DNA of 64,000 nt from an uncultured Verrucomicrobiae bacterium. GTDB taxonomy: Bacteria; Verrucomicrobiota; Verrucomicrobiia; Chthoniobacterales; JAATET01. This document shows, piece by piece, positions 3,450 to 59,836 of this stretch; position 1 is the first letter of the stretch, and the number at the start of each line of letters is the position of its first letter. Location: contig CAWDOJ010000003.1 in assembly GCA_963803825.1 (NCBI GenBank), positions 327,507-391,506 of the forward strand. Direction: 5' to 3'. Made by a program: the position numbers and the translations under genes. The notes under the pieces were generated by a model. That model saw nothing but the letters and a program-made list of their open reading frames with translations. It had not been told where the DNA came from and made no database searches.

Positions 3450-3568
3450 AACAAGGCGCTGCAGCCAACCCCTAGCCGCTATCGCGGCTGGGGTTGAGGA
3501 ACCCGCCACAGGCAGTTGCTCCGTTTGCCAAATCCTTATACAAGCTCGGGGTGGCTGAGCTTGACGTT
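3450..3568 (+). repeat. attC, centre type 2 (about 14 copies)
   Basis: 119 bp; centre TATCGCGGCTGGGGTTGAGGAACCC..GTTTGCCAAATCCTTATACAAG. Confidence 0.93.
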
Positions 3569-3958
3569 AGACTCTTATACAAAATTCATGAAGACCTCCG
3601 GTGGATGAAATAATGAGATGCATGAAGCACCACTGCCAAGCCGAACATTTGCAACTGAGCCTGGGGATTTTGTATCGATATCTAGAACTCCGGTGGATAA
3701 ATTCACTGGCCGGCTTGAATTCGGAGTCGAGCGGAGCGAGAACCCTCGCTAAAAATGATCCGAAGACGAACTCATATTTTGTGCGCAGCACGCGAACTTT
3801 TCAAGCAATTTTGCGTAATTCATCCAATCAGGACTAATGCCATTGGCGCACTGAACTTACCTCCTCCACCATCGCCACATCTGAGACAGCTCCACCTCAC
3901 ACAATTATACTTAGAAGACAGAACATCCAGAAATGGAGAAAAGCAATACGAGTCTAAC
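3566..3958 (+). other. Gene-less cassette, family A copy 1
   Basis: 393 bp between attC sites; no ORF conserved across all copies. Confidence 0.8.
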
Positions 3959-4091
3959 AAGGCGCTGCAGCCAACCCCTAGCCGCTTCGCTGGCTGGGGT
4001 TGCTCGGTCCCGCTTTTGGCAGCTCACCTCCAGGTTGGCTTGATCGCCCGATCAGGGTGGCTGAGCTTGACGTTCGGTCCTGAAAAATGAA

Positions 4092-4119
4092 TTCCATCCG
4101 ACTACTTGTCTGATAGACT
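4092..4119 (+). promoter_or_regulatory. Putative extended -10 promoter of TA cassette
   Basis: TG-A-TAGACT 6 nt before ATG 4126. Confidence 0.45.
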
Positions 4120-4125
4120 GAACCA

Positions 4126-4350
4126 ATGACACTTGCAGAATTTCCTCAACTTCAGGCTCTATCGCCAAGGGACAAGCTCCAGCTTGTTGACGAATTGTGG
4201 ATCGATGTCATCCACAATGTCGATTCCGTCGAGCCATCCGAACAGGAACGATCTATTTTGGATGCCAGATGGATGAGTTTCATCACTGATCCGGCTTCAG
4301 CGATGACCCTCGAAGAGTGCAAGACCCGCGTAAGAGATCTTCGCGGATGA
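4126..4350 (+). CDS. Addiction module antitoxin (unstable antitoxin family)
   Basis: LSPRDKLQLVDELW..LDARW pattern; ATGA overlap with toxin. Confidence 0.85.
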   Translation: MTLAEFPQLQALSPRDKLQLVDELWIDVIHNVDSVEPSEQERSILDARWMSFITDPASAMTLEECKTRVRDLRG

Positions 4351-4652
4351 AGGATTTTCGAATCTTACCTGAAGTTCCACAAGATCTTGCCGAAATCGCT
4401 GATTGGTATGACGTGCACGGGTATCCAGGACTTGGGGATCGATTCATTGATACTTTCTATTCATACATTCCGCACATCTGCGAAGATGGAGAAGCATATC
4501 GCCAAATCTATTCTGGGTTTCGAAAGATTCTTCTGAAGCCATTCCCATATTTTCTATTCTACCGATACCATCAGGATATCGTGGTCGTCTCCCTCGTGAT
4601 AGGTGCCATCCGAAAGCCAGAAGCTGATTCGACGGCAACTAAAGATTCGTAA
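4347..4652 (+). CDS. RelE/ParE family toxin
   Basis: DL.EI..WY....GLG.RF...FPY.LFYR. Confidence 0.85.
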   Translation: MKDFRILPEVPQDLAEIADWYDVHGYPGLGDRFIDTFYSYIPHICEDGEAYRQIYSGFRKILLKPFPYFLFYRYHQDIVVVSLVIGAIRKPEADSTATKDS

Positions 4653-4777
4653 ATGAGACCGAACAAGGCGCTGCAGCCAACCCCTAGCCGCTTCGCTGGC
4701 TGGGGTTGCTCGGACCCGCTATTTGCAGTTCACCTCAGAGTTGCCTCGGTCACCCGCTCGGGGTGGCTGAGCTTGAC

Positions 4778-5170
4778 GTTAGACTCTTATACAGAATTCA
4801 TGAAGACCTCCGGTGGATGAAATAATGAGGTGCATGAAGCGCTCCTGCCAAACCGAACATTTGCAACTGAGCTTTGGGGTTCTGTATCAGTATCTAGACC
4901 TCCGGTGGATGAATTCACTGAGTGGCTTGAAGTCAAAGTTCAGCGAAGCGAGAACAGTTATTAAAAGTGATCCGAAGGCGAACTCATATTCTGTGCGCAG
5001 CACACTAATTTTTTGAGCAATTTTGCGTAATTCATCCAATCAGGACTGATGCCACTGGCTCACTGAACTTAACTCCTCCACCATCGCCACATCTGAGACA
5101 GCTCCACCTCACTCAATTATACTTAGAAAACAGAACATGCAGAAATGGAGAAAAGCAATACGAGTCTAAC
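4778..5170 (+). other. Gene-less cassette, family A copy 2
   Basis: 393 bp, homologous to 3566-3958. Confidence 0.8.
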
Positions 5171-5295
5171 AAGGCGCTGCAGCCAACCCCTAGCCGCTTC
5201 GCTGGCTGGGGTTGCTCGGACCCCCTATTGGCAGTTCACCTCAGGGTTGGCTCGATTGCCCGCTCAGGGTGGCTGAGCTTGACGTTCGGTAAAAT

Positions 5296-5964
5296 ATGAA
5301 AATACGGCGCAAGCGGCTCCTCGAATTTTACGACACTTGACGGAGCGATCTCGGATTCGGCACTCATGTGAGCGCCATCACCGGCCTTTTAGGCGAAGAC
5401 CTAATCCTCGGAATACTTGAACACTATTTGCGAGCCGTGGGAGGGTTTTCAACACAGCTTGTAGATTACAAGTGCGTTCCGGGAACAAGGAGTGGTGCTC
5501 GACTTGACGCATGGTTGGTCGCCGAGAATGGAAAGGATAAGGTTCTTTATCAGATCGAAGTGAAGAACTGGGCTTCTAATTCGATTGGAGGAAAGTCAGT
5601 AATTCTAGATACAAGCACCGCAGATCTGCATGACCACGCTTCAAAAACATTCGAATCATATTTTCACACTCCAAGAAACGCGAAAATGACGTTAAAAGTC
5701 CTGTTTCCTATGAAACCGCCTCTCGGATACGAAAACTACCGTATAGTCCCATTGGTCGCACTCTGGTCTGCCGTGTCGAACAGCAATTTGTTAAAACCGT
5801 ATTTTTCTGTTCACAACCGTTACTTTAATGAAGGTCTATTCCCACACTTCGATGTATTCTCGTCATCTCTTGATCTGAGAACATTAGATATGGAATTCCT
5901 TGATATCGACCTCCCTCGTTTCTCGGACCGCCTAACCAGAATCAAGGAAATCGTGCAATTCTGA
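5296..5964 (+). CDS. PD-(D/E)XK restriction-endonuclease-like protein; in-frame TGA at 5338-5340, downstream ORF 5368-5964
   Basis: GEDL..RLDAWL..YQIEVKNW catalytic pattern. Confidence 0.65.
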
Positions 5965-6097
5965 TTACCGAACAAGGCGCTGCAGCCAACCCCTAGCCGC
6001 TTCGCGGCTGGGGTTAGCGGCTGCACAACCTGCAGGAATCTGCCACTTGCGACTCGATCACCCGCTCGGGGTGGCTGAGCTTGACGTTGGGTCATAA

Positions 6098-6456
6098 ATG
6101 AAACGCTTCGGATGCATAGTTATACCCGCTGCCCTTATAATCTGCATGGCGGTCTTCGCCGCTATGTTTCTAAAAGATCTCGATAGTTGGAACGGGGCAA
6201 TCGAACAAACAAGCTCTGATCTGGAATGGATTCCGAGTCAGGCGAGCAACGTCACCTATTATGAGGACTTTTTGCGATCAATTGCAGAATTCAACATTGA
6301 CCAATCCGAATTCGAGAGATGGTGCCACGCGCAGGACAAAGCTTTGCACGCCGTCGATAATCCACTTGATACATCCATTCAACGTTCAATCCCGATGCTC
6401 GCATCATGCGGCCTCATCGCACTTCCAAAAACCGATCCTGAAGACAGCTATTATAA
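6098..6456 (+). pseudogene. Cassette gene truncated by ISL3 (similar to 14505-15029)
   Basis: ORF runs into IS end; no continuation on far side; WIPSQASNVTYY..SIAEFNIDQSEF resembles LPRTAEQISYY..SLAEFDVTESQF. Confidence 0.8.
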
Positions 6457-7766
6457 GGCTCTTCAGGGTTTACAGTGGGAAAAGATCGAGCTTACCGAGG
6501 AAGAAGAGAATTCTGGTCCGATAGTTGAGGAAAGAACGGAATCCACGGGCGGCAGACTTGAGGGATTGGATTCGTGAATTGAGAGCCTCGGTAGCCGCGT
6601 TGGTGATGCGGTGGCTCAGGAAAGTGATGATATTCTCAAAGTGGTTTTTGAGGGTTTTCGCCACCTTCTTGATGGGCTCGAGTTGAGAGCGGCGAGCCCA
6701 GCCATACCAAGCAGCGAAGAACTTGCGGGCATTGGCCTCGTAGCGGAAGTCCCAGAAGCGGCGGAAGTTTTCCTTGATGGCCCAAGCGCGAGCGCTCTTG
6801 AGATCGGAGTGACGCAGTTGAGAAAAGCGGCAGACATCCTCCTCTCTGAGATGATCGGGGTTGTAGCCGAAGAGGCGCTGGGTGCCCTTGAGGCGTTCGT
6901 CTCCCATGGCTTGCAGGCGTTTGTTTTCGGCGCGCACGACCTGGCTCACTGCCTTGTTGAGATGGGCGCTGATGTGGTAGCGGTCGTGGACCAGATCAGC
7001 CTGCGGGGCGTAGTCTGCGACGCTGGCACCAAAATGCCCGCTCATGTCGGCGGCCACGGCTTCCAAGCCCGCGGTGACATCCTCGGGTAGGCATTGCCAA
7101 AGGACTGCCGCGCTCTGCTTGTCGTTGCCGTCAGTGACTTCCAGCACCCGGCTGCCTTCCAGATCAGTCATGAGCGAAATGTAGCTCTGCCCACCGCCAA
7201 AGCTCTTTTCATCGAGTCCGGCGTAGCGCAATCCACTGAGATCGCGACGCTCGAGCCCCCGCTCAACGGCCCGTCGCATGATCCCGTGAACTTGATCCCA
7301 GCTCAGTCCCAGCAAACGCGCCGCCGAACTCACCGTTGCACACGCTCGGATCACTTCGATGGCAAAACGCTCGTAAAGCAGCGTAAAGCGACTGCCCTTT
7401 CCCGCCCGCGGCACCGGCACGCTTTCCACCCGCCCATCAAGGCAACCGCAACCGCGGAACTCGCGCCGCCAGCAACGTCTCGAACCCGCACGTATCCATG
7501 TGCTTCCAGAAGCGCTCGACATGGTCATGGCACGGAAGTCGATGCTCTCCATCCTCACTGGCCCACAATGTCCCCCGCTCATACCCGAGCCGGACCACCA
7601 CCCGCTTCTCACTCACGGCCAAGTCGACTTCTTCAACCACCCACGGACTCTTCAATCCCAAGATCTGCGCGTAAAACTCTGTATCCTTCATCGCACTCCT
7701 TCCTACCCGCATCCATCCTCTCCGTTCAAACCCTCTTCAGTTTCCCACTACAATCTCGGAGGAGCC
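6457..7766 (-). mobile_element. ISL3-family IS, copy 2 (1310 bp), no TSD, at array orientation switch
   Basis: Same ends as copy 1; flanks TATTATAA and ACCCTGAG differ. Confidence 0.95.
6470..7712 (-). pseudogene. ISL3 transposase, frameshifted
   Basis: Extra A near 7440 (CATCAAGGC vs CATCAGGC) splits the ORF. Confidence 0.9.
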
Positions 7767-7843
7767 ACCCTGAGCGGGCAATCAAGCCAACCCTGAGGTG
7801 AGCTGCCGGAAGCGGGTTCGAGCAACCCCGGCCAGCGAAGCGG

Positions 7844-8242
7844 CTAGGGGTTGGCTGCAGCGCCTTGTTCGGCTGTATTTGCCCGGATAAAGTAGGATCG
7901 TGTTGTTTGAACATCGCCGAACGATCTTCCGTCGAACTGAACCTTGACTTGAATTCCCGGCCTAGGCGAGAAGATTGGCAGAATACCGAAATATAAATGC
8001 TTACCCAGCATGCCGATCTCCTCTTCATCAGCAATAGTTAGCGTCGGTCCTCCAACTAGTTTCTTGGACTCCCCAGATTTGTGAACGACAATATAGCTAG
8101 GTCCTTCTGAGACTTTTATTACGAGCTTGCCGTTGTCCAAAGCTACGGACTCGAATGGGCTAGTTCCCCGGACATCTGCAGCAGCAGAAATGTGTGAATA
8201 GACCAAGATGGCAGACGCTACAGTAAGTATTGGAATATTCAT
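7844..8242 (-). CDS. Secreted hypothetical protein
   Basis: Signal-peptide-like N-terminus; stops inside attC. Confidence 0.75.
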   Translation of the reverse strand: MNIPILTVASAILVYSHISAAADVRGTSPFESVALDNGKLVIKVSEGPSYIVVHKSGESKKLVGGPTLTIADEEEIGMLGKHLYFGILPIFSPRPGIQVKVQFDGRSFGDVQTTRSYFIRANTAEQGAAANP

Positions 8243-8544
8243 GATTATTTAGGTAAGCAGTCGATTGGCACGTTTCAAGGTCGGTTTATCACTAATTATA
8301 TCATCCACCGGAGGTTGAGCCGAACGTCAAGCTCAGCCACCCCGAACGGGCAACCGAGCCAACCCCTAGGTGAGCTGCCAGTAGCGGGTCCGAGCAACCC
8401 CAGCCAGCGAAGCGGCTAGGGGTTGGCTGCAGCGCCTTGTTCGGCTGTATTGGAAACGTGGTATCGCGATAATGCACGTAGAAAGCCACAAATACTGCCT
8501 TTGCACGATGAACGCGGGTTCAATGTAATTTTCTGCAGCTTCAT

Positions 8545-8766
8545 CTAATTGTTGGTAGACAAGATCCGGATAAGTTGGGCGGCGCTCTCGATTGCTGAGA
8601 GTGATATGGCCAGAACCCCAATGAACCTGAGTAGTTTATATATCGGTTTGTCTGAGTGAATGAGTTGCTCGAAAAAGCTAACCCCGACTTTAGGGTGAAA
8701 AAGAATATACAAAAGAGGAACCGAAACCAAGATTGCAAAGGTGACTATAAAATATGTTGTGGACAA
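8545..8766 (-). CDS. Small 2-TM hypothetical protein
   Basis: Hydrophobic ORF covering about half of the cassette. Confidence 0.5.
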   Translation of the reverse strand: MSTTYFIVTFAILVSVPLLYILFHPKVGVSFFEQLIHSDKPIYKLLRFIGVLAISLSAIESAAQLIRILSTNN

Positions 8767-9033
8767 TATGAGGAGGGGTTTGCGAATCGGAATTTTGTAT
8801 CGAATACGATTTTCGCCTTACTTGTAAATTTGTAGATAGATCGTGGGCCCTTCGCGTCGATCTGTGTAATTTCATCCGCCGGAGGCTATTTCATGAGCCG
8901 AACGTCAAGCTCAGCCACCCTTAGCGGGTAACCGAGCCAACCCTTAGGTGAGCTGCCAGTGGCGGGACCGAGCAACCCCAGCCAGCGAAGCGGCTAGGGG
9001 TTGGCTGCAGCGCCTTGTTAGACCAGCATTTAT

Positions 9034-9429
9034 TTATTTGCTTTCTGACGCGATCCGTTTTGCCTTGGATGAGATTGCGTTCTCCGGGAATCTATTCGTA
9101 TATTGTAGAATGAAGTGCGCTCCGTCTCTTGAGACTTCCTCGTCGGAGAGCTTCTCACCCTTTGCGTCTACGGGGTAGTTCTCATATTGAACCGAGTTGG
9201 AAGCGAGTTCTTCATATGCAAGGCCAATATTCCGCTCAAGCGAGTATCGTAGTGAACTTGGCTTACCGTTTAGGAGAATGAGCTGGATTGTAGAATCATT
9301 GAGTTGTTTATTCCATGCTTCTCGAGTGCTTCGTTGTTCAGCTTGCCGATCACCAATGAAAAAACCAATGAGAGATGCTATAAGAATAATTGCTACTATT
9401 AGAACTGATTTTGTTATGCGGGCATTCAT
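9034..9429 (-). CDS. Membrane-anchored hypothetical protein
   Basis: Fills cassette; N-terminal TM. Confidence 0.75.
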   Translation of the reverse strand: MNARITKSVLIVAIILIASLIGFFIGDRQAEQRSTREAWNKQLNDSTIQLILLNGKPSSLRYSLERNIGLAYEELASNSVQYENYPVDAKGEKLSDEEVSRDGAHFILQYTNRFPENAISSKAKRIASESK

Positions 9430-9560
9430 ATTTATTTATGGTCTAACGTCAAGCTCAGCCACCCCGAACGGGAAATCGAGCCAACCCTGAGGTGAACTGC
9501 AAATAGCGGGACCGAGCAACCCCAGCCAGCGAAGCGGCTAGGGGTTGGCTGCAGCGCCTT

Positions 9561-9954
9561 GTTAGACTCGTATTGCTTATCTCCGTTTCTGGATGTTCTG
9601 TTTTCTGAGTATAATTGTGTGAGGTGAAGCTGTCTCAAATGTCGCGATGGTGGAGGAGTTAGGTTCAGTGAGCCAGTGGCATCAGTCCTCATTGGATGAA
9701 TTACGCAAAAGTGCTCAGAAAAATTCGAGTGCTGCGCACAAAACATGAGTTCGCCTTCGGATCACTTATAATAACGGTTCTCGCTTCGCTAGACTTTGAG
9801 TTCAAGCCACTCAGTGAATTCATCCACCGGAGGTCTAGATATCGATACAAAATCCCCATGCTCAGTTGCAAATGTTCGGCTTGGCAGGAGCGCTTCATGC
9901 ATCTTATTGTATCATCCACCGGAGGTCTTCATGAATATTGTATAAGAGTCTAAC
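9561..9954 (-). other. Gene-less cassette, family A copy 3
   Basis: 394 bp homolog. Confidence 0.8.
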
Positions 9955-10081
9955 GTCAAGCTCAGCCACCCCGAACGGGCGTGCGAGCAACGGGTTGTGA
10001 TCTACTGGAGGAAGACCGTGGAAGAAAGCTGGCAGTGGAGCGGCTAGGGGTTGGCTGCAGCGCCTTGTTCGCTGGTGTTAT

Positions 10082-10630
10082 TCACACCTTGCTGCTCATA
10101 AAAAAGATCATGCGATCCTTCGGTCTGACAAAAATCAACTCTACGGCCGTTGGTCGTGTTCCGTGACAGTATATGCTCCAAGGATAGATATACATTTCAT
10201 CCGAGCGTAGCTCTTGGCTTGGAGGAAACCAGGATATGTTCTCATCGTGTAGCCATCCCTCTACAAATTTTATGGCATCATCCAAGACGCCGTCTACCTG
10301 ATCGCCTCGTGTCCAACCCGATCCGAAGTCGTCCTTCGTCAATTCAGATTTGTTCACATGACTGATCCGTATCGCGTGGGCATCGAGATGGTCGCCGGTA
10401 AAAGATCGAGATGAAACGTAGCTGTGGATGACTTCCTCAATTCTATCGTCGCCAAGGCGACACCAATTTAGAACATATCGAACGTCATGCTTGTTAGCTA
10501 AATTTGAAGAGTCGCTATTTCCTGGTCCAAGCTGGAAGCCAACGAAACCGATCACTGCAATCCCTCCGATTAGGCAAACGATGCCCCAAGCGATGAGAAG
10601 CCACTTTATAACTGGCAAGAGTTTTTTCAT
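10082..10630 (-). CDS. Membrane-anchored hypothetical protein
   Basis: Fills cassette. Confidence 0.8.
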   Translation of the reverse strand: MKKLLPVIKWLLIAWGIVCLIGGIAVIGFVGFQLGPGNSDSSNLANKHDVRYVLNWCRLGDDRIEEVIHSYVSSRSFTGDHLDAHAIRISHVNKSELTKDDFGSGWTRGDQVDGVLDDAIKFVEGWLHDENISWFPPSQELRSDEMYIYPWSIYCHGTRPTAVELIFVRPKDRMIFFMSSKV

Positions 10631-11296: not shown

Positions 11297-11422
11297 GATA
11301 GAGCCGAACGTCAAGCTCAGCCACCCTGAGCTTGGATAAGGATTTGGCGAACGGAACAACTGCCTGTGGCGGGTTCCTCAACCCCAGCCGCGATAGCGGC
11401 TAGGGGTTGGCTGCAGCGCCTT

Positions 11423-11695
11423 GTTCGGATCCGCCCTTCCGTGGTTCCGCTTAGTGCCTTATTCGAGGGCATTGCTTGTTTCAGGAGTTGAATTGATTCA
11501 GGGCAAACTTGATGGCTTGCGTGATCTCGATCGAACGAACTCCCGAGGGTCAAACCTCATTCTCCGCTTCTTTTGCGCATTCACGAACCAATCTACTTGT
11601 GCGGATCGAGCGCATACACATCTCAATAAAAAGCAAATCCGGAGGCTGTCTACAATCAAGTGGGAATGTCGTAGTCGATGGGGATAGGTCCGAAC
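11423..11695 (-). other. Gene-less cassette, family B copy 1
   Basis: 273 bp; starts GTTCGGACCTATCCCCATCGACT, ends CCACGGAAGGGCGGATCCGAAC. Confidence 0.8.
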
Positions 11696-25776: not shown

Positions 25777-25927
25777 GACAAGGAGGCGCCATATATGTCT
25801 ATCAATGGCCCAACGTCAAGCTCAGCCACCATGAGCTTGGATAAGGATTTGGCGAACGGAGCAACTGCTTGTGGCGGGTTCCTCAACCCCAGCCGCGATA
25901 GCGGCTAGGGGTTGGCTGCAGCGCCTT

Positions 25928-26200
25928 GTTCGGATCCGCCTGTCCGTGGTCCGGCTCAGCGTCTTATTTGAAGGTATTAGTTGTTTATGAATTGAGTTAA
26001 TTAGAACTGCCTTGATGCTCTACAGTAGCCAAAACTCAACTAGTGTTTGATAGCCAGACCGTATATTTCCGCTTGGCTTCCGCATTCGCGGACCATTCTC
26101 TTTGTGCGGCGAGCGAGGATACGCGACTCGAACAAAAGCAACTTCGGCGGCTCTTTGCAGTTTGGTGGGAATCTCGCAGTCGATGGGGATAGGTCCGAAC
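25928..26200 (-). other. Gene-less cassette, family B copy 2
   Basis: 273 bp homolog. Confidence 0.8.
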
Positions 26201-26313
26201 GTCAAGCTCAGCCACCCTGAGCGGGTGACCGAGCCAACCCTGAGGTGAGCTGCCAGTAGAGGGTCCGAGCAATCCCAGCCAGCGAAGCGGCTAGGGGTTG
26301 GCTGCAGCGCCTT

Positions 26314-26707
26314 GTTAGACTCGTATTGCCTTTTTCCGTTTCTCGATGCTTCTGTTTTCTAAGTATAATTGTGTGAGGTGAAGCTGTATCAGATGTCGCG
26401 ATGGTGGAAGAGTTAAGTTCAGTGAGCCAGTGGCATTAGTCCTGATTGGATGAAGTACGCAAAATTACCTAAAAAATTCGAGTGCTGCGCACAAAATATG
26501 AGTTCGCCTTCGGATCACTTTTAATAACCGTTCTCGCTTCGCTCGACTTTGAATTCAAGCCACTCAGTGATTTCATCCACCGGAGGTCTGGCTATCGATA
26601 CAAAATCCCCAGGCTCAGTAGCAAATGTTCGGCTCGGCATGAGCGCTTCATGCATCTCATTATTTCATCCACCGGAGGTCGTTATGAATTTTGTATAGGA
26701 GTCTAAC
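26314..26707 (-). other. Gene-less cassette, family A copy 4
   Basis: 394 bp homolog. Confidence 0.8.
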
Positions 26708-31251: not shown

Positions 31252-31437
31252 CAGAGAAGCATTGTAGATTGGTTGGAGGCATTCACATTATATCATCCGC
31301 CGGAGGCTACTCATGAAGCCGAACGTCAAGCTCAGCCACCCTGAGCGGGTGACCGAGCCAACCCCTAGGTGAGCTGCCAATAGCGGGACCGAGCAACCCC
31401 AGCCAGCGAAGCGGCTAGGGGTTGGCTGCAGCGCCTT

Positions 31438-31830
31438 GTTAGACTCGTATTGCTTTTCTCCATTTCTGGATGTTCTGTCTTCTAAGAATAATTGTGTGAG
31501 GTGGAGCTGTCTCAGATGTGGCGATGGTGGAGGAGGTATGTCCAGGGAGCCAATGGCATTAGTCCTGATTAGCTGAATTACGCAAAATCGCTCGATAAGT
31601 TCGCGTGCTGCGCACAAAATATGAGTTCGTCTTCGGATCATTTTTAACGAGCCTTCTCGCTCCGCTCGACTTCGAAATCAAGCCGGCCAGTGAATTCATC
31701 CACCGGAGGTCTAGATATCGATACAAAACCCCCAGGCTCAGTTGCAAATGTTCGGCTTGGCAGAAGTGCTTCATGCATCTGATTATTTCATCCACCGGAG
31801 GTCTTCATGAATTCTGTATAAAAGTCTAAC
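31438..31830 (-). other. Gene-less cassette, family A copy 5
   Basis: 393 bp homolog. Confidence 0.8.
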
Positions 31831-31943
31831 GTCAAGCTCAGCCACCCTGAGCTTGTATAAGGATTTGGCAAACGGAACAACTGCCTGTAGAGGGTTCCTC
31901 AACCCCAGCCGCGATAGCGGCTAGGGGTTGGCTGCAGCGCCTT

Positions 31944-32218
31944 GTTCGGATCCGCCCGTCCGTGGTCCCAATCAGCATCTTATTCAAAGGCATTAAAAGT
32001 TTCATTGATTGGATTGATAGAAGCTGGCTTTGATAAATTGTGGGAGCGGGAACTCAGCTGGTTTCCGATGGCCACACCCTATCGTTCAGCTTGACTCCCG
32101 CATTCGCGGACCAATCTGGTTATGCGGCGAATGCGCATGCGCGACTCTAACAAAAGCAAATTGAAGGGCTGTTTGCTGTTTGGTGCGGATATTGCAGTCG
32201 ATGGGGAAAGGTCCGAAC
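31944..32218 (-). other. Gene-less cassette, family B copy 3
   Basis: 275 bp homolog. Confidence 0.8.
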
Positions 32219-39483: not shown

Positions 39484-39615
39484 CAGCAATTTATGGGCTA
39501 ACGTCAAGCTCAGCCACCCTGAGCTTGGATAAGGATTTGGCGAACGGAACAACTGCTTGTAGAGGGTTCCTCAACCCCAGCCGCGATAGCGGCTAGGGGT
39601 TGGCTGCAGCGCCTT

Positions 39616-39890
39616 GTTCGGATCCGCCCGTCCGTGGTCCCGCTCAGCATCTTATTCGAAGGCATTAAATGTTTCATTGATTGAATTAATACAAGCTGGC
39701 TTTGATAACTTGCGGGTGCGGGAACTCATCTGGTTTTCGATGGCCACACCCTATCTTTCAGGCTGACTTCCGCATTCGCGGACGAATCTGTTTATGCGGC
39801 GAATGCGCATACGCGACTCTAACAAAAGCAAATTGAAGGGCTGTTTGCTATTCGGTGCGGATATTGCAGTCGATGGGGATAGGTCCGAAC
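39616..39890 (-). other. Gene-less cassette, family B copy 4
   Basis: 275 bp homolog. Confidence 0.8.
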
Positions 39891-42061: not shown

Positions 42062-42187
42062 TTTATGGCCTAACGTCAAGCTCAGCCACCCTGAGCTTGT
42101 ATAAGGATTAGGCAAACGGAACAACTGCCTGTAGAGGGTTCCTCAACCCCAGCCGCGATAGCGGCTAGGGGTTGGCTGCAGCGCCTT

Positions 42188-42462
42188 GTTCGGATCCGCC
42201 CGTCCGTGGTCCCACTCAGCATCTTATTCGAAGGCATTAAAAGTTTCATTGATTGAATTGATAGAAGCTGGCTTTGATAAATTGTGGGAGCGGGAACTCA
42301 GCTGGTTTCCGATGGCCACACCCTATCTTTCAGCTTGACTTCCGCATTCGAGGACCAATCTGTTTATGCGGCGAATGCGCATACGCAACTCTAACAAAAG
42401 CAGATTGAAAGGCTGTTTGCTGTTCGGTGCGGATATCGCAGTCGATGGGGATAGGTCCGAAC
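42188..42462 (-). other. Gene-less cassette, family B copy 5
   Basis: 275 bp homolog. Confidence 0.8.
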
Positions 42463-52788: not shown

Positions 52789-53181
52789 CTATGAGCCACA
52801 TGTAGCCGTGACGATCTTGTGGTTTTTAACAACTCCATCGCGATCAATGAATATTTGCAGGGCAGGGTCCCCAAATCCCGTCCAAAAATGAACTTCCGCA
52901 ATAATAGGTGTTCCATCTGTCTGAATCCAGACGGAGCAATCTGTTTCTGGGAAATCAGATGATAGATGCTGTTCGGTTATGTATTTGAGTGCAATTTGTT
53001 TGAATTCAAGTGCTGAAAACGCAGCTTTCCTCCCGGAGGAAGCGACAAACATGTAATCGTCCGGATCACGATTTAGAATGCCGACACGGTTATCATTAGT
53101 AGAATCTCTTTTGGAAGGCGTGGAACATCCCGCAAAACATGCGATGATGGCCAAAGTCATTAACGATTTCATAGATTTCAT
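52789..53181 (-). CDS. Lipoprotein
   Basis: FAGC lipobox. Confidence 0.8.
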   Translation of the reverse strand: MKSMKSLMTLAIIACFAGCSTPSKRDSTNDNRVGILNRDPDDYMFVASSGRKAAFSALEFKQIALKYITEQHLSSDFPETDCSVWIQTDGTPIIAEVHFWTGFGDPALQIFIDRDGVVKNHKIVTATCGS

Positions 53182-53279
53182 AGCCTAACGTCAAGCTCAG
53201 CCACCCTGAGCGGGTAATCGAGCCAACCCCTAGGTGAGCTGCCGATAGCGGGTTCGAGCAACCCCAGCCAGCGAAGCGG

Positions 53280-53849
53280 CTAGGGGTTGGCTGCAGCGCC
53301 TTGTTCGGTCTCATTTCGCAGAACAATTGCGGTGGTCGGGATAGTGACAAGCACATTCAGATGAGCTTCATCGTAGGAATGATTCCAAGCGGAACCCTTC
53401 AGCTTCAGCTGCAGAGAATATTCTGATATTGTTTCCCGTGGGATAAGCCATCCGCGTCCTCCTGCGATTATAGCGTAGTTTTGATCTAAGTCGCCAACCA
53501 TGGAAACTCCTCCGTGAGATATCAGCCAACCAAGACGAGATCCGAATGGAAGTATGAATGATTGGCGATTGGATTGGATGCTGGAAGCCGTTGGGGGCGG
53601 CTGAACAGGAACTCCATTTTTGTCTAATAGAACTACCTCAATGTCAGCGACGGCGTTGGTCGTCCAAGATACTTCAGAGTTGTGGATGTTCTCTAGATTA
53701 ACAAAAACGTTAATCAGATTCGGATAAAAAGTGTTGTGACTTTGTTCGAATGTCAAAGAAGACTTTACGACATCAGAAAATGAGACCTCTTTTCCTGAGC
53801 TCACTGAGGTTAATAACGGGAGAAGGATGATGAAGACGATTGGGCGCAT
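53280..53849 (-). CDS. Secreted hypothetical protein
   Basis: Signal peptide. Confidence 0.75.
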   Translation of the reverse strand: MRPIVFIILLPLLTSVSSGKEVSFSDVVKSSLTFEQSHNTFYPNLINVFVNLENIHNSEVSWTTNAVADIEVVLLDKNGVPVQPPPTASSIQSNRQSFILPFGSRLGWLISHGGVSMVGDLDQNYAIIAGGRGWLIPRETISEYSLQLKLKGSAWNHSYDEAHLNVLVTIPTTAIVLRNETEQGAAANP

Positions 53850-53955
53850 ATGTATAGGACCGAACGTCAAGCTCAGCCACCCTGAACGGGCGATCAAGTC
53901 AACCCGGAGGTGAGCTGCCAATAGCGGGTCCGAGCAACCCCAGCCAGCGAAGCGG

Positions 53956-54498
53956 CTAGGGGTTGGCTGCAGCGCCTTGTTCGGTCCGCATTTTCCGTTG
54001 TTGCATCTCTTGTCGAGCTTCTTCGGAATCTTCAGTCAAAAATGAAGTCATAACTAAGCTGCTTCGTTTCAGGTAATCGGATTTTTCAAGCGGTTCAAAT
54101 CTGGAGGCGACTAGTTCGAAGAGCTCCTGCGTTCCGCCTTTCGTTTGAATCGATAGGAGCTTTGGATAAATGTCCCCAGCATAGCTTTTCAAGATGACGT
54201 CTACATCTGCATTTCCTCTTATCGTTTGACTTTCACTCCCGCCTGAAGTCCACATCCGAGTGTAGACTACCTTGTCATGAAGGTAAAATTGTTCATAAAT
54301 GTCAGTAGATCGGCCGTCTCGAGCGGACTCCAAGCGATCCAAAAGTAGATCGTCGCCTCGGAAATACATCGTAATGAAGACGGTCCCTCGGTCTGAACTT
54401 AGCTGTTTAGCTGCCTTCGTTATTCTTTCTGATGCTGGCGTTGAATGACCGAGAGGAGCTGCCGCAAGTACGATCGAACAAACAATGCAAAATTTCAT
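53956..54498 (-). CDS. Secreted hypothetical protein
   Basis: Signal peptide. Confidence 0.75.
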   Translation of the reverse strand: MKFCIVCSIVLAAAPLGHSTPASERITKAAKQLSSDRGTVFITMYFRGDDLLLDRLESARDGRSTDIYEQFYLHDKVVYTRMWTSGGSESQTIRGNADVDVILKSYAGDIYPKLLSIQTKGGTQELFELVASRFEPLEKSDYLKRSSLVMTSFLTEDSEEARQEMQQRKMRTEQGAAANP

Positions 54499-54644
54499 GA
54501 GTTCTCTTATGACCGAACGTCAAGCTCAGCCACCCTGAGCGGGCAATCGAGCCAGCCCTAAGGTGAGCTGCCGATAGCGGGTTCGAACAACCCCAGCCAG
54601 CGAAGCGGCTAGGGGTTGGCTGCAGCGCCTTGTTCGGCTGTATT

Positions 54645-55046
54645 CTATTCGAGGTGTGTGATGGTCCGTGAGAATGAGGGAAGTCCTAACTGGGCAGAGG
54701 CAACAGAGTATTCTCGCTCTGTAAGTGCTCCCACCACTGAATCTTTTGAGTTGGCATACCCGCTGTCCTTGGTCATGTCCAGATAGAAGAAGTTTATAAT
54801 GGTTCGATTGTCATCAGGATGTTGCTTCGCCACGATGTATCGTTGATCGTATCCAATAGAGAATACCGTTTCAGGTATCCTTCCGACCGTAGAGCCGTTT
54901 CCCACGTCGTAGGAAACACTCATCTGTGAATCTGTATCGACAGCGATTAACCGATATGGTCCGACGATCTCTTCATCGTGGACGAATCCACAGCTGGCGA
55001 AGCAAGACGCGACGGCGGAATAGAGCGCAAATCGGATCAGGAACAT
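54645..55046 (-). CDS. Lipoprotein (DUF3997-like)
   Basis: FASC lipobox; GYD..YIVAKQ.P. Confidence 0.75.
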   Translation of the reverse strand: MFLIRFALYSAVASCFASCGFVHDEEIVGPYRLIAVDTDSQMSVSYDVGNGSTVGRIPETVFSIGYDQRYIVAKQHPDDNRTIINFFYLDMTKDSGYANSKDSVVGALTEREYSVASAQLGLPSFSRTITHLE

Positions 55047-55320
55047 TGCAGAGATTCTGTGAGCAAACGCTAGGACGAAAAGTGATATTTACAGGTTGCT
55101 CAGAAATATTTCATCCACCGGAGGTCGAGCCGAACGTCAAGCTCAGCCACCCCGAACGGGTGAGCGAACTGCGTGAGGTGTAGGGTAGGAGTAGCGCTTT
55201 TCGAACGTCCGGGCAGTGGCGCGGCTAGGGGTTGGCTGCAGCGCCTTGTTCGGCCCGCGATGCTCAATCGCTGTAGACGGTAACGATTCAGAGGGTTTGT
55301 GGTTGGATACATTACGCCTT

Positions 55321-55590
55321 TTAAGACCGGCCAAAAATCTCAGGAACTGTAAACATGCAAATGACGGTAAGAATGGCAATGGCTGCGATACCGGTGAAAC
55401 CAATCCCAACAAGCCATATTCCGATTTGCGCGGCTATCCCAAAAAGAAACACAAGAATGGGAATGCCACGATTGCCGTAGTGCCAACTGATACTGCATGT
55501 GACGAGCCATGCTGCAGTGACAAAGAAATACATAAGATAATTCGGCAATTGCACAATATTGCAGTGGTCTCGCGTGAAAGCTGATTTCAC
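55321..55590 (-). CDS. Small membrane protein
   Basis: Hydrophobic ORF after long leader. Confidence 0.5.
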   Translation of the reverse strand: MKSAFTRDHCNIVQLPNYLMYFFVTAAWLVTCSISWHYGNRGIPILVFLFGIAAQIGIWLVGIGFTGIAAIAILTVICMFTVPEIFGRS

Positions 55591-55902
55591 ATCTTTCCTC
55601 GCTCCGCGGGAAAGTTTCTAGGAGAAGGAGGGACGGTGGTTGAAGGCGTTAAACCGATTCCCCAATCGAGTCTCGACTGTCGTAAAATCCTGATTTGCTG
55701 AAGATTCTTCAGGTGGCAAAGTGGCTCTGCTGACGAGTAACGACAGGCTCAGAAATATATCATCCGCCGGAGGCTATATGAAGCCGAACGTCAAGCTCAG
55801 CCACCCTGAGCTTGTATAAAGATTCGGAAAACGGAGCAACTGCTTGTGGCGGGTTCCTCAACCCCAGCCGCGATAGCGGCTAGGGGTTGGCTGCAGCGCC
55901 TT

Positions 55903-56175
55903 GTTCGGATCCGCCCGTCCGTGGTCCCGCTCAGCGTCTTATTCGAGGGCATTGCTTGTTTCATTAATTGAATTGTTTCAGATCGAACTTAATTGCTTGC
56001 GCGATCTCCATTGAACGAACCCGCGAGGGTCAAACCTCATTCTCAGCTTCTCTTGCGCATTCACGAACCAATCTACTTGTGCGGATCGAGCGAATACACA
56101 TCTCAACAAAAAGCAAATCCAGATGCCGTCTGCAATCAAGTGGGAATGTCGTAGTCGAAGGGGATAGGTCCGAAC
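55903..56175 (-). other. Gene-less cassette, family B copy 6
   Basis: 273 bp, closest to copy 1. Confidence 0.8.
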
Positions 56176-56309
56176 GTCAAGCTCAGCCACCCTGAGCGGG
56201 TGATCGAGCCAACCCTAAGGTGAACTGCCGGTAGCGCTTCCGAGCAACCCCAGCCAGCGAAGCGGCTAGGGGTTGGCTGCAGCGCCTTGTTAGGGCTGTA
56301 TCTATCGGT

Positions 56310-56519
56310 TTAAACTTCGCAGAATTCCGGCTCCGAGTGTGGAGTGGGGATGTCGAATCCTTCTTCGCGTAGACCGTCGAGGTGGAACTCAATTGCATCC
56401 TTCATATTTCTTGAGGTTGCTTCACGCGTGTTGCCAGTTGATATACATCCCGGAAGGTCGGGCGAATACGCAGAATAGCCTGATTCCGTGGGTTCTAGAA
56501 TGATCAGATATTTGTTCAT
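56310..56519 (-). CDS. hicB: HicB family antitoxin
   Basis: YSAYSPDLPGC.STG.T.E. Confidence 0.92.
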   Translation of the reverse strand: MNKYLIILEPTESGYSAYSPDLPGCISTGNTREATSRNMKDAIEFHLDGLREEGFDIPTPHSEPEFCEV

Positions 56520-56701
56520 TTGAGTCCTGCTTGTTTGAGTATACTGTGCAGAGTTCCGATTGCAACGTCGTCGCCCGGATTTCTAGGAATAGTGACCAAT
56601 CCAGCTTTTGTCGGATGCTTGTATTGGTGGTGGCTGCCCTTTGTGCGGGAGTGAACCCAGCCGTCGGCTTTGATCTGCTTCAATATGTCCCTGACTTTCA
56701 C
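56516..56701 (-). CDS. hicA: HicA family toxin
   Basis: DGW...R.KGSH.QYKHP...G.VTIP ... GTL.SILKQAGL. Confidence 0.92.
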   Translation of the reverse strand: MKVRDILKQIKADGWVHSRTKGSHHQYKHPTKAGLVTIPRNPGDDVAIGTLHSILKQAGLK

Positions 56702-56707
56702 GAAGCG

Positions 56708-56736
56708 ATTCTGGAGTGTCGGAGCAATTGCGTCAA
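56708..56736 (-). promoter_or_regulatory. Putative sigma70 promoter (leaderless)
   Basis: TTGACG-17-CAGAAT, 6 nt before GTG. Confidence 0.5.
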
Positions 56737-56943
56737 ACAGGCATTCCACATGTCCTCGACGTCGAAACCACCGAATGCGTCGCTTGAATTGGGCCGGATG
56801 TATTGCAGCCCTAACGTCAAGCTCAGCCACCCTGAGCTTGTATAAGGATTTGGCAAACGGAAAAACTGCCTGTAGAGGGTTCCTCAACCCCAGTCGCGAT
56901 AGCGGCTAGGGGTTGGCTGCAGCGCCTTGTTAGGCCGCAGTTG

Positions 56944-57360
56944 CTATTTCCTCGTAAAATGCTGGGGATACGCCGTGCGTGAGTATGCTGTAACTTCGGG
57001 GTTAAAGGATGCATTTGGGTGTTCGCTAAAGTATATCGCTGCGTCTGTTTTGTAGTCGTCGAGAAATTGATCCCGGTAAAATAAAATCCGGGGGAGCTTG
57101 CTTGCTATGTGCAAAAGACCTACGGAGTTATCGAGATCGTTCAGGACAGATACATTGGCAGCGGTGAATGTCTCGGAAGCCTCAAGCGCACTGGGTATGT
57201 TTCCATCTCTTATCAGATTTGACACTTGTAGATTCATCATGAGTTGGCCGTTTGTCCCTTGAACGGCTGCCCACTGTATTCCTAAACAGAAGGCTGCAGT
57301 GAAGACAATAATCGCCGCTGTCGCGACGAGCGCTGATTTGATGATTTTGTTTTTTTTCAT
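56944..57360 (-). CDS. Membrane-anchored hypothetical protein
   Basis: Fills cassette. Confidence 0.75.
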   Translation of the reverse strand: MKKNKIIKSALVATAAIIVFTAAFCLGIQWAAVQGTNGQLMMNLQVSNLIRDGNIPSALEASETFTAANVSVLNDLDNSVGLLHIASKLPRILFYRDQFLDDYKTDAAIYFSEHPNASFNPEVTAYSRTAYPQHFTRK

Positions 57361-57509
57361 AAATTTATTGGCCTAACGTCAAGCTCAGCCACCCTGAACG
57401 GGTGATCGAGCCAACCCTGAGGTGAACTGCCAATAGCGTGACCGAGCAACCCCAGCCAGCGAAGCGGCTAGGGGTTGGCTGCAGCGCCTTGTTAGGTCTG
57501 CATCGTGTT

Positions 57510-57785
57510 TTATACCAACGTGAATAGTTCTACCGTTCCTCCGGATATATGAATAGGACTTTGAACCATGATACTCTTGGCAGTATCAATATCTGGAACT
57601 TCAATGGCGATGTATCCAGTAACTGTCTCTGAAATGCATGAATCAAATCTATTGTTTTCTAGCGAGATGCCATTGTCCAGAGCAGAGCCGCCAATGATGT
57701 ATCCCTTTTCATGGAGCATCGAAAAATAGTCATCCCAGTCATTCGACTGTCCGACGCCATGGTTGATCATGATGTATTTATTCAT
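57510..57785 (-). CDS. YciI-like protein
   Basis: GG.AL..G ... VTGY..IE..D.D.A......P....GG.VE. Confidence 0.7.
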   Translation of the reverse strand: MNKYIMINHGVGQSNDWDDYFSMLHEKGYIIGGSALDNGISLENNRFDSCISETVTGYIAIEVPDIDTAKSIMVQSPIHISGGTVELFTLV

Positions 57786-57987
57786 TTTTGGATTCGAGTC
57801 CGGTAAAACTCTATGTGTTATTTGCAAACTTGCTGTGTGTTTAAATGCATTATTTTGAATGACCTAACGTCAAGCTCAGCCACCCTGAACGGGCAACCGA
57901 GCCAACCCCGAGGTGAACTGCCCGTAGCGGGTCCGCGCAACCCCAGCCAGCGAAGCGGCTAGGGGTTGGCTGCAGCGCCTTGTTAGC

Positions 57988-58803
57988 CTAATTTTTATTG
58001 TAACCGTATTGACCCCGTGAGAGCATCACATCCTTCCAATAGGTTTCTCGTTCTATAATTTGTTTGTCGTCTGTGCGCATCGGGCGATACTCTAAAAGTG
58101 CAAACGCGTAGTGTTTCCGTGCATAGTCCAAACCTCGTTTTTTGATGAGTTTTGTTAATTCGTCGTTCCATCCATGACCAGTTCCGATGTATGAACACCA
58201 TCGAGACCAAATGCCGTGGTTACCATATGCTGAACCTACATATCGCTTTCCATTTGATCGGTCCGTAATCAAATAGACGCCTTTGACATTACGGAGTGCG
58301 GCGTGCCAATCTGGGCGTTGTTGCCGAACAATTGTTTCAAGAATGACAAATGAATGATTTATGTTTTCGTATCCGCAAAAGTGCTCACCGGAATAGACAT
58401 CACGGAGGAGTTCGCAAACCTTAATCTGATCCAAATGCTTCTCCAGATAGAACGATCTGCCTCGCAGACCGCGCTTCCGAAAATATGATAATTTCAGCCT
58501 ACCGATGAAAGCTTCCGAGTCTGGGACCAGCTGTAGTTCATATCGCGTGGCGTTACGTGCTCGCATCTCGAATACTCCGCCAAAGAGCCATTTATTTTGT
58601 TCATGATAATAGTCGATTAGGGAAAAGATATACCGACGGGAGAAATCATCTTTCTTCTCTTTCCATCGATTCCAGTCAAACCATCTTTCGCGGTCCTGGA
58701 CAAAAATATCAAGTGGGTGATCCTGCCGATTCCAACTTGCGAGATGAATTTTGTATTCTGAAGGGTTTCCGATTTCGATCAGCGACTGGAGGGGAACGTT
58801 CAT
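57988..58803 (-). CDS. GIY-YIG nuclease family protein
   Basis: GVYLITD..NGKRYVGSAYG..GI.SRW..Y ... RE.YWK ... GYN.N. Confidence 0.9.
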   Translation of the reverse strand: MNVPLQSLIEIGNPSEYKIHLASWNRQDHPLDIFVQDRERWFDWNRWKEKKDDFSRRYIFSLIDYYHEQNKWLFGGVFEMRARNATRYELQLVPDSEAFIGRLKLSYFRKRGLRGRSFYLEKHLDQIKVCELLRDVYSGEHFCGYENINHSFVILETIVRQQRPDWHAALRNVKGVYLITDRSNGKRYVGSAYGNHGIWSRWCSYIGTGHGWNDELTKLIKKRGLDYARKHYAFALLEYRPMRTDDKQIIERETYWKDVMLSRGQYGYNKN

Positions 58804-58934
58804 TTATTTTAAAAGGCTAACGTCAAGCTCAGCCACCCTGAGCGGGTAACCGAGCCAACCCCTAGGTGAGCTGCCAATAGCGGGTCCGAGCAACCCCAGC
58901 CAGCGAAGCGGCTAGGGGTTGGCTGCAGCGCCTT

Positions 58935-59328
58935 GTTAGACTCGTATTGCTTTTCTCCGTTTCTGGATGCTCTGTTTTCTAGGTATATCTGTGTGAGGTC
59001 AAGCTGCCTCAGATGTGGCGATGGTGGAGGAGTGAAGTTCAGTGATCCAGTGGCATCAGTCCTGATTGGATGAAGTACGCAAAAGTACCTAAAAAATTCG
59101 AGTGCTGCGCATAAAATATGAGTCCGCCTTCGGATCACTTTTTAATAACCGTTCTAGCTTCGCTCGACTTTGAATTTAAGTCGGCCAGTGAATTCATCCA
59201 CCGGAGGTCTAGATATCGATACAAAATCCCCAGGCTCAGTTGCAAGTGTTCGGCTTCGCAGGAGTGCTTCATGCATCTCATTATTTCATCCACCGGAGGT
59301 CTACATGAATTGTGTATAAGAGTCTAAC
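58935..59328 (-). other. Gene-less cassette, family A copy 6
   Basis: 394 bp homolog. Confidence 0.8.
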
Positions 59329-59441
59329 GTCAAGCTCAGCCACCCTGAGCTTGTATAAGGATTTGGCAAACGGAACAACTGCCTGTAGAGGGTTCCTCAA
59401 CCCCAGCCGCGATAGCGGCTAGGGGTTGGCTGCAGCGCCTT

Positions 59442-59836
59442 GTTAGACCCGCATTGTATTTCTTTGCTGCTGAAAATAACGATTTACAATGGAATTGAAT
59501 GGATTGGCCTATTTATTGCAAGTCGGCGTGGAAAAAAGCCGAATTGTTGGAATTGATTTGGACAAAGTGTTATTGAATAAATTTCCAAAAGTCGCTCTGA
59601 AAAATTCGAGTGCTTCGCACTAAATATGAGTTCGCCTTCGGCTCACTTTTACGAAGCGTTCTCGCTTCGCTCGACTTTCGATGCAAGACATTCAGAAAAT
59701 GCATCCACCGGAGGTCTAGATTAGCATGTTTAATGCAGTGGCGTAAACGGGGAAACCGTCTGAGACCGCAGAGATTATCCGGAATATTATATTTTTATCC
59801 ACCGGAGGTCTTCATCCATTCCTTATAGGGTCTAAC
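59442..59836 (-). other. Gene-less cassette, divergent family A member (A')
   Basis: 395 bp; keeps both motif boxes and the central segment, the rest has diverged. Confidence 0.75.

Follow-up and report, generated by a model that had tools for sequence, protein, structure and literature searches.

What does an integron cassette carry when it carries no gene? The question is posed by Family A, seven gene-less cassettes in a 64,000-nt stretch of DNA (hereafter, the window) from an uncultured Verrucomicrobiae bacterium (contig CAWDOJ010000003.1 of assembly GCA_963803825.1, positions 327,507 to 391,506). These cassettes had originally been predicted to be built from G-N-A mini-hairpins, and either to serve as single-strand initiation (ssi, priming) signals or to be selfish. 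Judging from the comparison of copies and relatives described here, Family A does not code for protein, and it is a tandem-duplicated form of a wider superfamily of gene-less cassettes. The pattern of conservation supports selection on a few short hairpin-capable motifs and their spacing, not on a reading frame. Our preferred, tentative reading of the conserved parts is a short transcription unit in sense orientation, in which the box would act as a promoter and the core as a terminator; we consider this a reasonable possibility rather than a probable one, and it is weighed below against signals in single-stranded DNA, protein operators, and a passenger cassette.

Copies, variation, and coding potential

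Alignment and blastn bore out the presence of seven Family A copies, all in cassette orientation, and shifted the originally proposed starts by at most 2 nt, on minus-strand copies (Table 1). The body is of nearly fixed length, as had been claimed, at 395-396 nt rather than the 393-395 bp first given. All copies are flanked by GTCTAAC...GTTAGAC (inverse core RYYYAAC, core GTTRRRY), the orientation of each copy is that of its attC, and the complete attC-bounded cassette measures 505-508 bp; when cut between G and TT, the window cassettes A1 to A7 are 506, 506, 507, 507, 506, 507, and 508 nt long. The source genome (G000) holds 12 copies (11 close copies plus the divergent A7), and three more were found in the genome of its sister species (G005). 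Family A makes up 12 of the 145 cassettes shorter than 4 kb that were parsed from contig C3, on which the window lies; it is clustered near the attI end and restricted to the genus. Blastn gave matches in two of the five other genomes of the genus that were compared and in none of 55 genomes outside it. A model search gave hits in three of the five; it scored 150 of the 570-912 candidates per genome, and G001, G002, and G004 were not read through.

The six close window copies are 86-94% identical in pairwise comparison. Relative to their consensus, A7 is 79% identical over the 5′ end and box 1, 42% between the boxes, 83% from box 2 to the core, and 49% in the 3′ half, with just one to three gap columns per segment. 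The claim that this divergent copy retains the described elements while the rest changes was thus borne out for the boxes and the box 2-to-core segment, the remainder being 42-49% identical. Pairwise diversity among the Family A copies is ∼0.11 across the body and 0.12-0.19 in the variable attC centre; it drops to 0.04 at each box and to 0.07 at the core and at nt 261-290.

Tests for coding were negative, and the copies are genuinely gene-less, as had been proposed; no open reading frame (ORF) is intact in all of them. Among 13 close copies, 173 of the 395 body columns are variable, and these are split 57/59/57 by position modulo 3. A 74-aa antisense ORF had been named as one that might turn out to be under a dN/dS well below 1. 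Its pooled pN/pS is 0.79, compared to 0.75 and 0.71 for out-of-frame controls, and that of a 74-aa sense ORF is 0.67. In-frame stops interrupt the antisense ORF in 4 of the 13 copies and the sense ORF in 11, and neither ORF matched a Pfam family or has homologues in a large protein collection. The verdict rests on substitutions, not on frameshifts, since these assemblies may contain homopolymer indel errors. Some copies have open frames of 222 nt (74 aa) on either strand, and Family A exceeds in this respect the size limits set for non-coding cassettes in the defining passages of Boucher et al. 2006 (no ORF >150 bp; PMC1382264) and Blanco et al. 2024 (no ORF >210 bp; PMC11014356).

That Family A encodes a small protein, whether through one of these two ORFs or through a 33-aa antisense peptide in its single-box relatives, is highly improbable, and we regard this reading as close to refuted. 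The 74-aa antisense frame is intact in four of the seven window copies, and 4 of 11 distinct single-box members have an antisense ORF of 33-35 aa that extends from an ATG in the core as far as the TAA of the boundary. Set against this are the missing codon periodicity, the pN/pS equal to that of the controls, the stops in 4 of 13 copies, the lack of Pfam matches and homologues, T-run indels that shift frames between relatives, and seven non-synonymous versus two synonymous changes (counted by eye) in the G003 paralogues. The antisense peptide starting at the core ATG was rejected as a candidate of its own; apart from being intact in so few of the single-box members, it is reduced to an 8-codon stub in Family A.

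The antisense frame is more open than the other antisense frames (0-1 stops versus 2-6), and an ancestral antisense ORF is possible, without present selection for it. The same openness is what one would expect of a selfish or neutral passenger, that is, a decayed ORF cassette of no use to the host, with an antisense ORF ending at the boundary TAA, which would be kept and multiplied solely by being cheap and having a well-recombining attC. The frame indeed starts beside a typical A-rich leader plus ATG and ends at that TAA, most of the body drifts at approximately the rate of the variable attC centre, and selfishness was proposed for non-coding Vibrio families in the relevant part of Boucher et al. 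2006 (PMC1382264). Nevertheless, the boxes and the core are conserved between otherwise unalignable members, across three to four species, a pattern that requires some purifying selection, be it solely to the advantage of the cassette itself. We consider a mere passenger unlikely. The broader suggestion of a selfish cassette, made in the original prediction, keeps some plausibility in view of the copy number, the position near the attI end, and the restriction to the genus.

The duplicated box, the core hairpin, and the superfamily

The box, GACCTCCGGTGGAT, has 18 matches in the window (at most two mismatches) versus 0.41 expected, and 14 of them are the two boxes of the seven copies. The predicted pairing of bottom-strand hairpin boxes 92-94 bp apart was confirmed: the boxes are 92 nt apart in six copies and 94 nt apart in the divergent copy, and the bottom-strand sequence of each is ACC-GGA-GGT. 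The view of the boxes as a device specific to Family A was not upheld. For comparison, 639 cassettes were parsed in G000 (145), G003 (300, in 260 kb), and G005 (194, in 140 kb). The box, as the module RCCTCCGGYGGA-TGA-AT-rich, starts off 160 of them, being located in their initial 60 nt; in 30 others it is at a different position, and one occurrence is antisense. It is a general 5′ module of a quarter of the cassettes of the genus, ORF cassettes included.

The box begins at nt 8-18 in 86 of 101 distinct contexts. Its logo is tCA-RCCTCCGGYGGA, then T or G (preceded by A in 99%), G (86%), A (88%), an AT-rich run, and T at +20 (73%), and this tail has the geometry of TGn plus a −10 hexamer (an extended −10 element). 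CCTCCGGYGG, the core of the box, has 41 occurrences within the 104-kb array region, compared to 56 in the other 3.2 Mb of the genome. For the extended box RMCCTCCGGYGGR, 4 of 31 occurrences are outside the array, and the outside sites listed lack the TGA and the AT-rich stretch behind it. On either side of CCTCCGG, the bases are G..C in 131 and A..T in 27 of 158 cases, with no other combination, which fits a 3-bp stem (RCC/GGY) whose loop is TCC on the top strand and GGA on the bottom strand. Position −1 is linked to this exchange (AG..C versus GA..T), so two haplotypes or a single event, rather than repeated compensation, may be responsible.

Box-bearing cassettes are far more often gene-less, with 51 of 145 distinct ones having no ORF of at least 70 aa versus 27 of 467 box-less ones. 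In ORF cassettes with a box, the box is upstream of the ORF; in typical box-less cassettes, the ORF starts 10-20 nt from the boundary. We rejected the box as a stop-codon trap or a Shine-Dalgarno-ATG module, its offset from the boundary not being frame-locked and the mini-ORFs not being conserved.

Three top-strand elements had been described beyond the boxes. GC-GRA-GC and GTGC-GCA-GCAC (with a GAA loop in the divergent copy) were found as described, and CC-GAA-GG was found except in A1, where GG has become GA. Of the corresponding mini-hairpins, the GTGC-GCA-GCAC core hairpin held up as a conserved structure; CC-GAA-GG did not, its outer pair forming in 13 of 27 members, nor did GC-GRA-GC, which is absent in the single-box relatives. 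On the top strand, Family A has 33 C-GNA-G mini-hairpins in 4,733 nt and the other cassettes have 75 in 79,023 nt, a ∼7-fold higher density in Family A; the counts are not independent because the 12 copies are related.

In 27 distinct members, the core consists of CGAAGRCGARYTCATAT.T., then GTGC-GNA-GCAC, YCGA, and T5-8. Its inner four pairs form in 23, 27, 27, and 26 members. Pair 34-42 is U-A in 23, C-G in two, and U.G in two, and a fifth outer pair (G-C, A-U, U-A, or U.G) is possible in 15. The loop is GCA in 23, GTA in three, and GAA in one, such that G and A are fixed and the middle base is free. None of 500 shuffles reached the observed percentage of paired bases or the covariation score, a result that is supportive only, the sequences being related and the structure having been read from them.

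The superfamily relatives, found from weak matches, are cassettes of 487-721 nt in G000 (C3:316856-317478), G003, G004, and G005. They have a single box at approximately nt 14-18, the core at approximately nt 107-110, and differing 3′ parts, some with further conserved blocks. The single-box relatives align with Family A from box 2 onward, consistent with Family A being a tandem duplication of a unit of the box plus ∼80 nt (boxes at nt 28 and 120, core at nt 214). All members with a box keep it 91-96 nt from the hairpin, even where the intervening sequence is unalignable.

Searches for the core beyond these cassettes yielded little. The core pattern matched only two G003 loci in the genome contig collection and nothing in a first metagenome scan. 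With a relaxed pattern, GGTGC-GCA-GCACC, CGA, and a T-run were seen in two AT-rich metagenome contigs (L032 and L033) unrelated to integrons, directly after another terminator-like hairpin downstream of a gene; the two contigs are orthologous and represent one event, about chance for 20 specified bases, and this hairpin is probably due to convergence or chance. Rfam gave no match at the gathering score in the window and none at E ≤ 1 in the loci of three relatives, and a permissive search returned just three chance-level matches (E 1.1-3), in attC sites and not in cassette bodies. RNA folding of the unit and of five long relatives by alifold gave mini-hairpins only. We also considered the core tract as an anti-start-site seed and set this aside as too weak, since just five cassettes have a complement of at least 11 nt, all of them in the generic A-rich leader plus ATG.

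Table 1. Positions in the window of Family A cassettes, their conserved elements, and related features
Feature	Position	Strand	Description
Family A bodies, A1 and A2	3566-3960, 4778-5172	+	from blastn and alignment
Family A bodies, A3 to A7	9559-9954, 26312-26707, 31436-31830, 58933-59328; divergent copy ends at 59836	-	from blastn and alignment
A1	3567-4072	+	body 3567-3960, own attC 3961-4072, cut between G and TT
A2	4779-5284	+	Family A cassette
A3	9447-9953	-	Family A cassette
A4	26200-26706	-	Family A cassette
A5	31324-31829	-	Family A cassette
A6	58821-59327	-	directly downstream of A7 in cassette order
A7, divergent copy	59328-59835	-	mosaic; attC of the variant type used by the 386/388-nt family
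Box 1 of A1	3593-3606	+	GACCTCCGGTGGAT, bottom strand ACC-GGA-GGT, then TGAAATAAT
Box 2 of A1	3685-3698	+	has one mismatch; 92 nt downstream of box 1; opens the unit aligning with single-box relatives
GAGCGGAGCGAG element (GC-GGA-GC) of A1	3729-3740	+	specific to Family A; just GCGAGAA in common with relatives
Unpaired core tract of A1 (..GATCCGAAGRCGAACTCATATTTT)	3755-3780	+	conserved
Core hairpin GTGC-GCA-GCAC of A1	3781-3791	+	then GCGA and a short T-run (T5-8 in most other copies)
Core hairpin and T-run of A2	4992-5013	+	terminator-like in the consensus scan
Box in an unrelated ORF-bearing cassette	55113-55126	-	at nt 11; further boxes at 62410-62423 and 8303-8316
386/388-nt family copies, among others	11307-11693, 25812-26198, 31828-32216, 39500-39888, 42072-42460, 55787-56173		second gene-less family

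Possible roles of the box and the core

The T-run of the core is present in the sense orientation only, as is the box, and the stem includes U.G variants; together, these features point to a possible terminator acting at the level of RNA, which they fit at least as well as a priming site. In the tentative transcription unit, the module at the 5′ end, made up of RCCTCCGGYGGA, TGA, and an AT-rich hexamer whose last base is T, would be a portable promoter or leader just inside the cassette boundary, and the core, ∼94 nt downstream, would be an intrinsic terminator composed of a purine-rich tract ending in TCATAT, a 4-5-bp G-N-A hairpin, YCGA, and T5-8. The product could be a small RNA, ∼90 nt long if begun at box 2 and ∼180 nt if begun at box 1; alternatively, a single start and a single stop could punctuate transcription of the array. 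Copies would multiply by ordinary cassette excision and re-insertion.

Scans for terminators, defined on the transcribed strand by a GC-rich stem, a loop of 3-8 nt, and a T-run no more than a few nt away, gave a mixed picture. A consensus scan flagged A2, and a laxer scan flagged 6 of 14 Family A copies and the long relative; the other Family A copies fall short in stem length or in the gap to the T-run. Genome-wide, 1528 terminator-like sites were counted versus 677 in a block-shuffled genome (2.3-fold), with long stems strongly enriched, and the organism therefore appears to use such signals. The promoter resemblance is one of consensus only, comprising the TGA and AT-rich hexamer of the box tail and weak sigma-70-like matches.

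Several observations weigh against such a unit. The −10-like hexamer is weak, with A at its second position in just 50% of cases, and four Family A copies read TGAGGTAAT; moreover, some ORFs may start inside or directly after the box, out of reach of a promoter located there. The core hairpin is short, is separated by 3-4 nt (YCGA) from the T-run, and has a nearly invariant stem sequence, a combination that is unusual for terminators and suggests sequence-specific recognition. The box is missing from two relatives that have the core (L043 and L047/48). Folding of the putative transcripts does not surpass that of shuffled sequences (z = −1.56, 0.37, 0.17, −0.55, and 0.20), neither Hfq nor CsrA was found in the 93% complete genome, and gene-less clusters are not enriched in sense terminator-like sites (6 of 41 versus 61 of 350). 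The 3-bp stem of the box is too weak for RNA, but such a stem is known to be stable as a DNA mini-hairpin.

Three narrower candidates were rejected: a CsrA sponge presenting the GGA of the box, the genome having no detected CsrA; gene-less cassettes as terminators in general, given the same cluster-level counts; and sigma-54, extracytoplasmic function, or −35/−10 readings of the core in either direction, for which no consistent hexamers were seen by eye.

The behavior of the box as RNA and DNA is among the observations that favor signals in single-stranded DNA (ssDNA). According to this explanation, the hairpin that the box forms on the bottom strand (RCC-GGA-GGY), at 8-28 nt from the point of recombination, and the top-strand core hairpin would act on the single-stranded array or on the excised cassette. 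They may serve as mini-hairpins resistant to SSB, the protein that binds single-stranded DNA, in priming or second-strand synthesis, or as modulators of attC folding, and raise the cassette's own mobility. All loops in the 27 cores are G-N-A closed by C-G, and every box contains GGA. The box flank is always Watson-Crick paired, the box does not fold as RNA (−1.2 kcal/mol, z = +1.33), and it is tied to the cassette boundary. Integron recombination itself works on folded single strands. Family A and a second gene-less family of 386/388 nt are concentrated near the attI end, and the second family follows Family A in 5 of 12 cases, though it represents 16 of 145 cassettes. In the sections of two papers that deal with d(GNA) loops, those with a C-G closing pair are described as exceptionally stable as DNA and much less so as RNA, with DNA mini-hairpins occurring at the G4 origin, at RSF1010 ssiA (CCGAAGG), and in N4 promoters (PMC13037366; PMC3201870); the likeness of the Family A motifs to these structures is real.

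Other results are difficult to reconcile with ssDNA signals, which we judge to be an unlikely explanation. Blastn of Family A against 72,556 plasmid and 50,697 phage records gave no match, and hence no similarity to known ssi-bearing replicons. The likeness to ColE1 that had been put forward is confined to 13 common nt, CGAGCG-N-AGCGAG, with T at the centre in the ColE1 record and not the C first given. Neither this 13-mer nor CC-GAA-GG is kept as a hairpin in the superfamily, which argues that they are not the conserved functional core, and just one of the three top-strand hairpins is shared as a conserved structure by the relatives. The conserved box tail and the T-run after the core are left without a role, the covariation of the box flank amounts to two linked haplotypes (AG..C and GA..T) that may derive from a single event, and the core has its G-N-A hairpin on the top strand, when it is the bottom strand that recombines. 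The priming reading as first proposed gained no support beyond resemblance, the elements analogous to ssi sites being mostly not the conserved ones.

In a more general form, cassettes of the genus would carry cis-acting DNA-structure signals besides attC, namely the bottom-strand box and, in Family A and its relatives, a top-strand G-N-A hairpin at a fixed distance of nine helical turns. These might act through SSB exclusion, second-strand priming, or control of attC folding, and Family A would be self-amplifying by way of the single-strand chemistry of the integron. The presence of the box in a quarter of the cassettes, with over-representation in gene-less ones, is part of this proposal, which strikes us as quite doubtful.

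The near-invariance of the stem sequences also raises the possibility of double-stranded operators, where a dimeric protein would bind the box (near-palindrome TCAGCC-TCC-GGCGGA) and the core (GTGC-N3-GCAC), approximately nine helical turns apart, and regulate or compact the array. Both motifs are inverted repeats of invariant sequence, spacings of 92-96 bp recur between box 1 and box 2 and between box 2 and the core, and the stems are conserved rather than freely covarying. Such operators are nonetheless distinctly improbable: no candidate protein was identified, the box is strictly oriented (160 sense versus 1 antisense), its invariant asymmetric centre (TCC) and tail are not expected of a symmetric operator, and the G-N-A pattern of the loops is left unexplained.

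The array, other gene-less families, and known systems

The window is part of one sedentary chromosomal integron array. It contains 91 attC ends (19-nt attC 3′ end, at most three mismatches) versus 0.02 expected, out of 150 on contig C3 of the source genome (3.3 Mb, 62% GC, 16 contigs). The attC sites are on the plus strand up to position 6088 and on the minus strand from position 8323 onward, and the orientation switches at an ISL3-like transposase gene (∼6470-7712), which suggests an inversion of the 5′ part of the array mediated by the insertion sequence. This gene is present in three copies (window 6470-7712 on the minus strand, C3:313678-314940, and C3:415077-416339) that bracket and interrupt the array; the window copy is frame-broken. 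A full-length integron integrase (TIGR02249, 417.5 bits with a cut-off of 265) is encoded at the end of contig C13, with one in-frame TGA, and the assembly does not join C13 to the array. Outside the window, beyond the putative attI (∼C3:414330), there is a fragmentary ORF similar to the N terminus of a tyrosine recombinase (C3:414432-415070); it is divergent from the array and interrupted by an ISL3 copy. Neither box nor core is present in the attI region.

The five other genomes of the genus contain from 65 to ∼410 copies each of the same attC (inverse-core region, family-level search), and a few copies of this region are also present in each of three further genera of the family; the arrays of the genus are among the largest outside Vibrio-type superintegrons. 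Throughout the window, two of the three sense frames are open across the conserved attC (e.g., 8301-8489 on the minus strand), so mechanical ORF lists are full of attC-derived tails and cassette ORF lengths can be inflated. The cassette between A1 and A2 (4073-4778, plus strand) holds two small overlapping ORFs that, by eye from their translations, are antitoxin/toxin-like (addiction-module type).

Two further gene-less families were observed. The 386/388-nt family has 16 copies on C3 and 30 in the three genomes, with a length of 395-396 nt in G003 and G005. It starts with TTCGGACCTATCCCC, ends with GGGACCACGGACGGGCGGATCCGAAC, and contains an 11-bp inverted repeat around GCGCATTCGC; in G000 it has its own attC variant and supplies the first cassette beside the putative attI. 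The third family, of 409-413 nt, has 56 distinct copies in the G003 and G005 arrays (e.g., L049-L061). Its box is at nt 11 (GCCTCCGGCGGAGGAATATATTGG); it also contains an internal hairpin, TCGC-GGA-GCGA, with an A/T-rich run behind it, and has GCGGAGCGA in common with the first top-strand element of Family A.

Family A joins a known kind of non-coding cassette, and what is new is its anatomy. Paralogous, genus-restricted, conserved non-coding cassette families were described in Vibrio, with selfish roles or roles as promoters or regulatory RNAs proposed, in the relevant part of Boucher et al. 2006 (PMC1382264). As far as they are characterized there, the Vibrio families resemble Family A in being gene-less and attC-bounded, in having many paralogues per array and homologues only in related species, and in showing no codon-type variation. 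Family A differs in belonging to another phylum (Verrucomicrobia), without sequence relation, and in that its conserved parts are resolved here: the 5′ box shared with ORF cassettes, the core of hairpin and T-run, the spacing of ∼94 nt, and the internal tandem duplication.

A second comparison is provided by Blanco et al. 2024, who report sense promoter activity in most of 29 gene-less Vibrio cassettes and cite gene-less cassettes of Treponema (PMC11014356). In the results given there, the promoter cassettes are like Family A in size (491-666 bp versus 505-508), in having no real gene, and in the regulatory role proposed for their sense strand; their promoters escaped prediction in silico, and transcription began at sites other than the 5′ end of the cassette. 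In Family A, by contrast, the candidate promoter is a conserved box 8-28 nt from the boundary and is followed by the terminator-like core, so that read-through into the neighboring cassette is not the obvious outcome.

The known ssi and DNA mini-hairpin sites, as presented in the pertinent section of PMC13037366, have in common with Family A the C-G-closed G-N-A triloops, the exact heptamers CCGAAGG and GCGGAGC/GCGAAGC, and a single-stranded-DNA system. They differ in that homology is limited to these heptamers and the 13-nt ColE1 match, the stems of Family A are shorter than those of the N4 promoters, and a single top-strand hairpin is conserved in the relatives. Rho-independent terminators and small RNA genes are similar to Family A in their short GC-rich hairpin and T-run on one strand, the wobble and compensatory variants of the stem, the conserved unpaired tract upstream, and the constant distance from a promoter-like element. 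Family A departs from them in its 4-5-bp stem, its 3-4-nt YCGA spacer, its near-invariant stem sequence, the failure to find Hfq or CsrA, and the absence of an Rfam match.

The role of the abundant gene-less cassettes in large chromosomal integrons has been open since their description in Vibrio, and promoter activity explains some of them. The anatomy of Family A, along with its divergent copy and distant relatives, shows which nucleotides matter and reduces the problem to a small set of testable mutations. If the box is a portable promoter, many cassettes of these arrays would drive their own expression and not rely on the platform promoter Pc. If it is instead a single-strand signal, the integron model would gain a new cis element, and cis-acting DNA-structure signals across the cassettes of the genus, if real, would add a new layer to that model.

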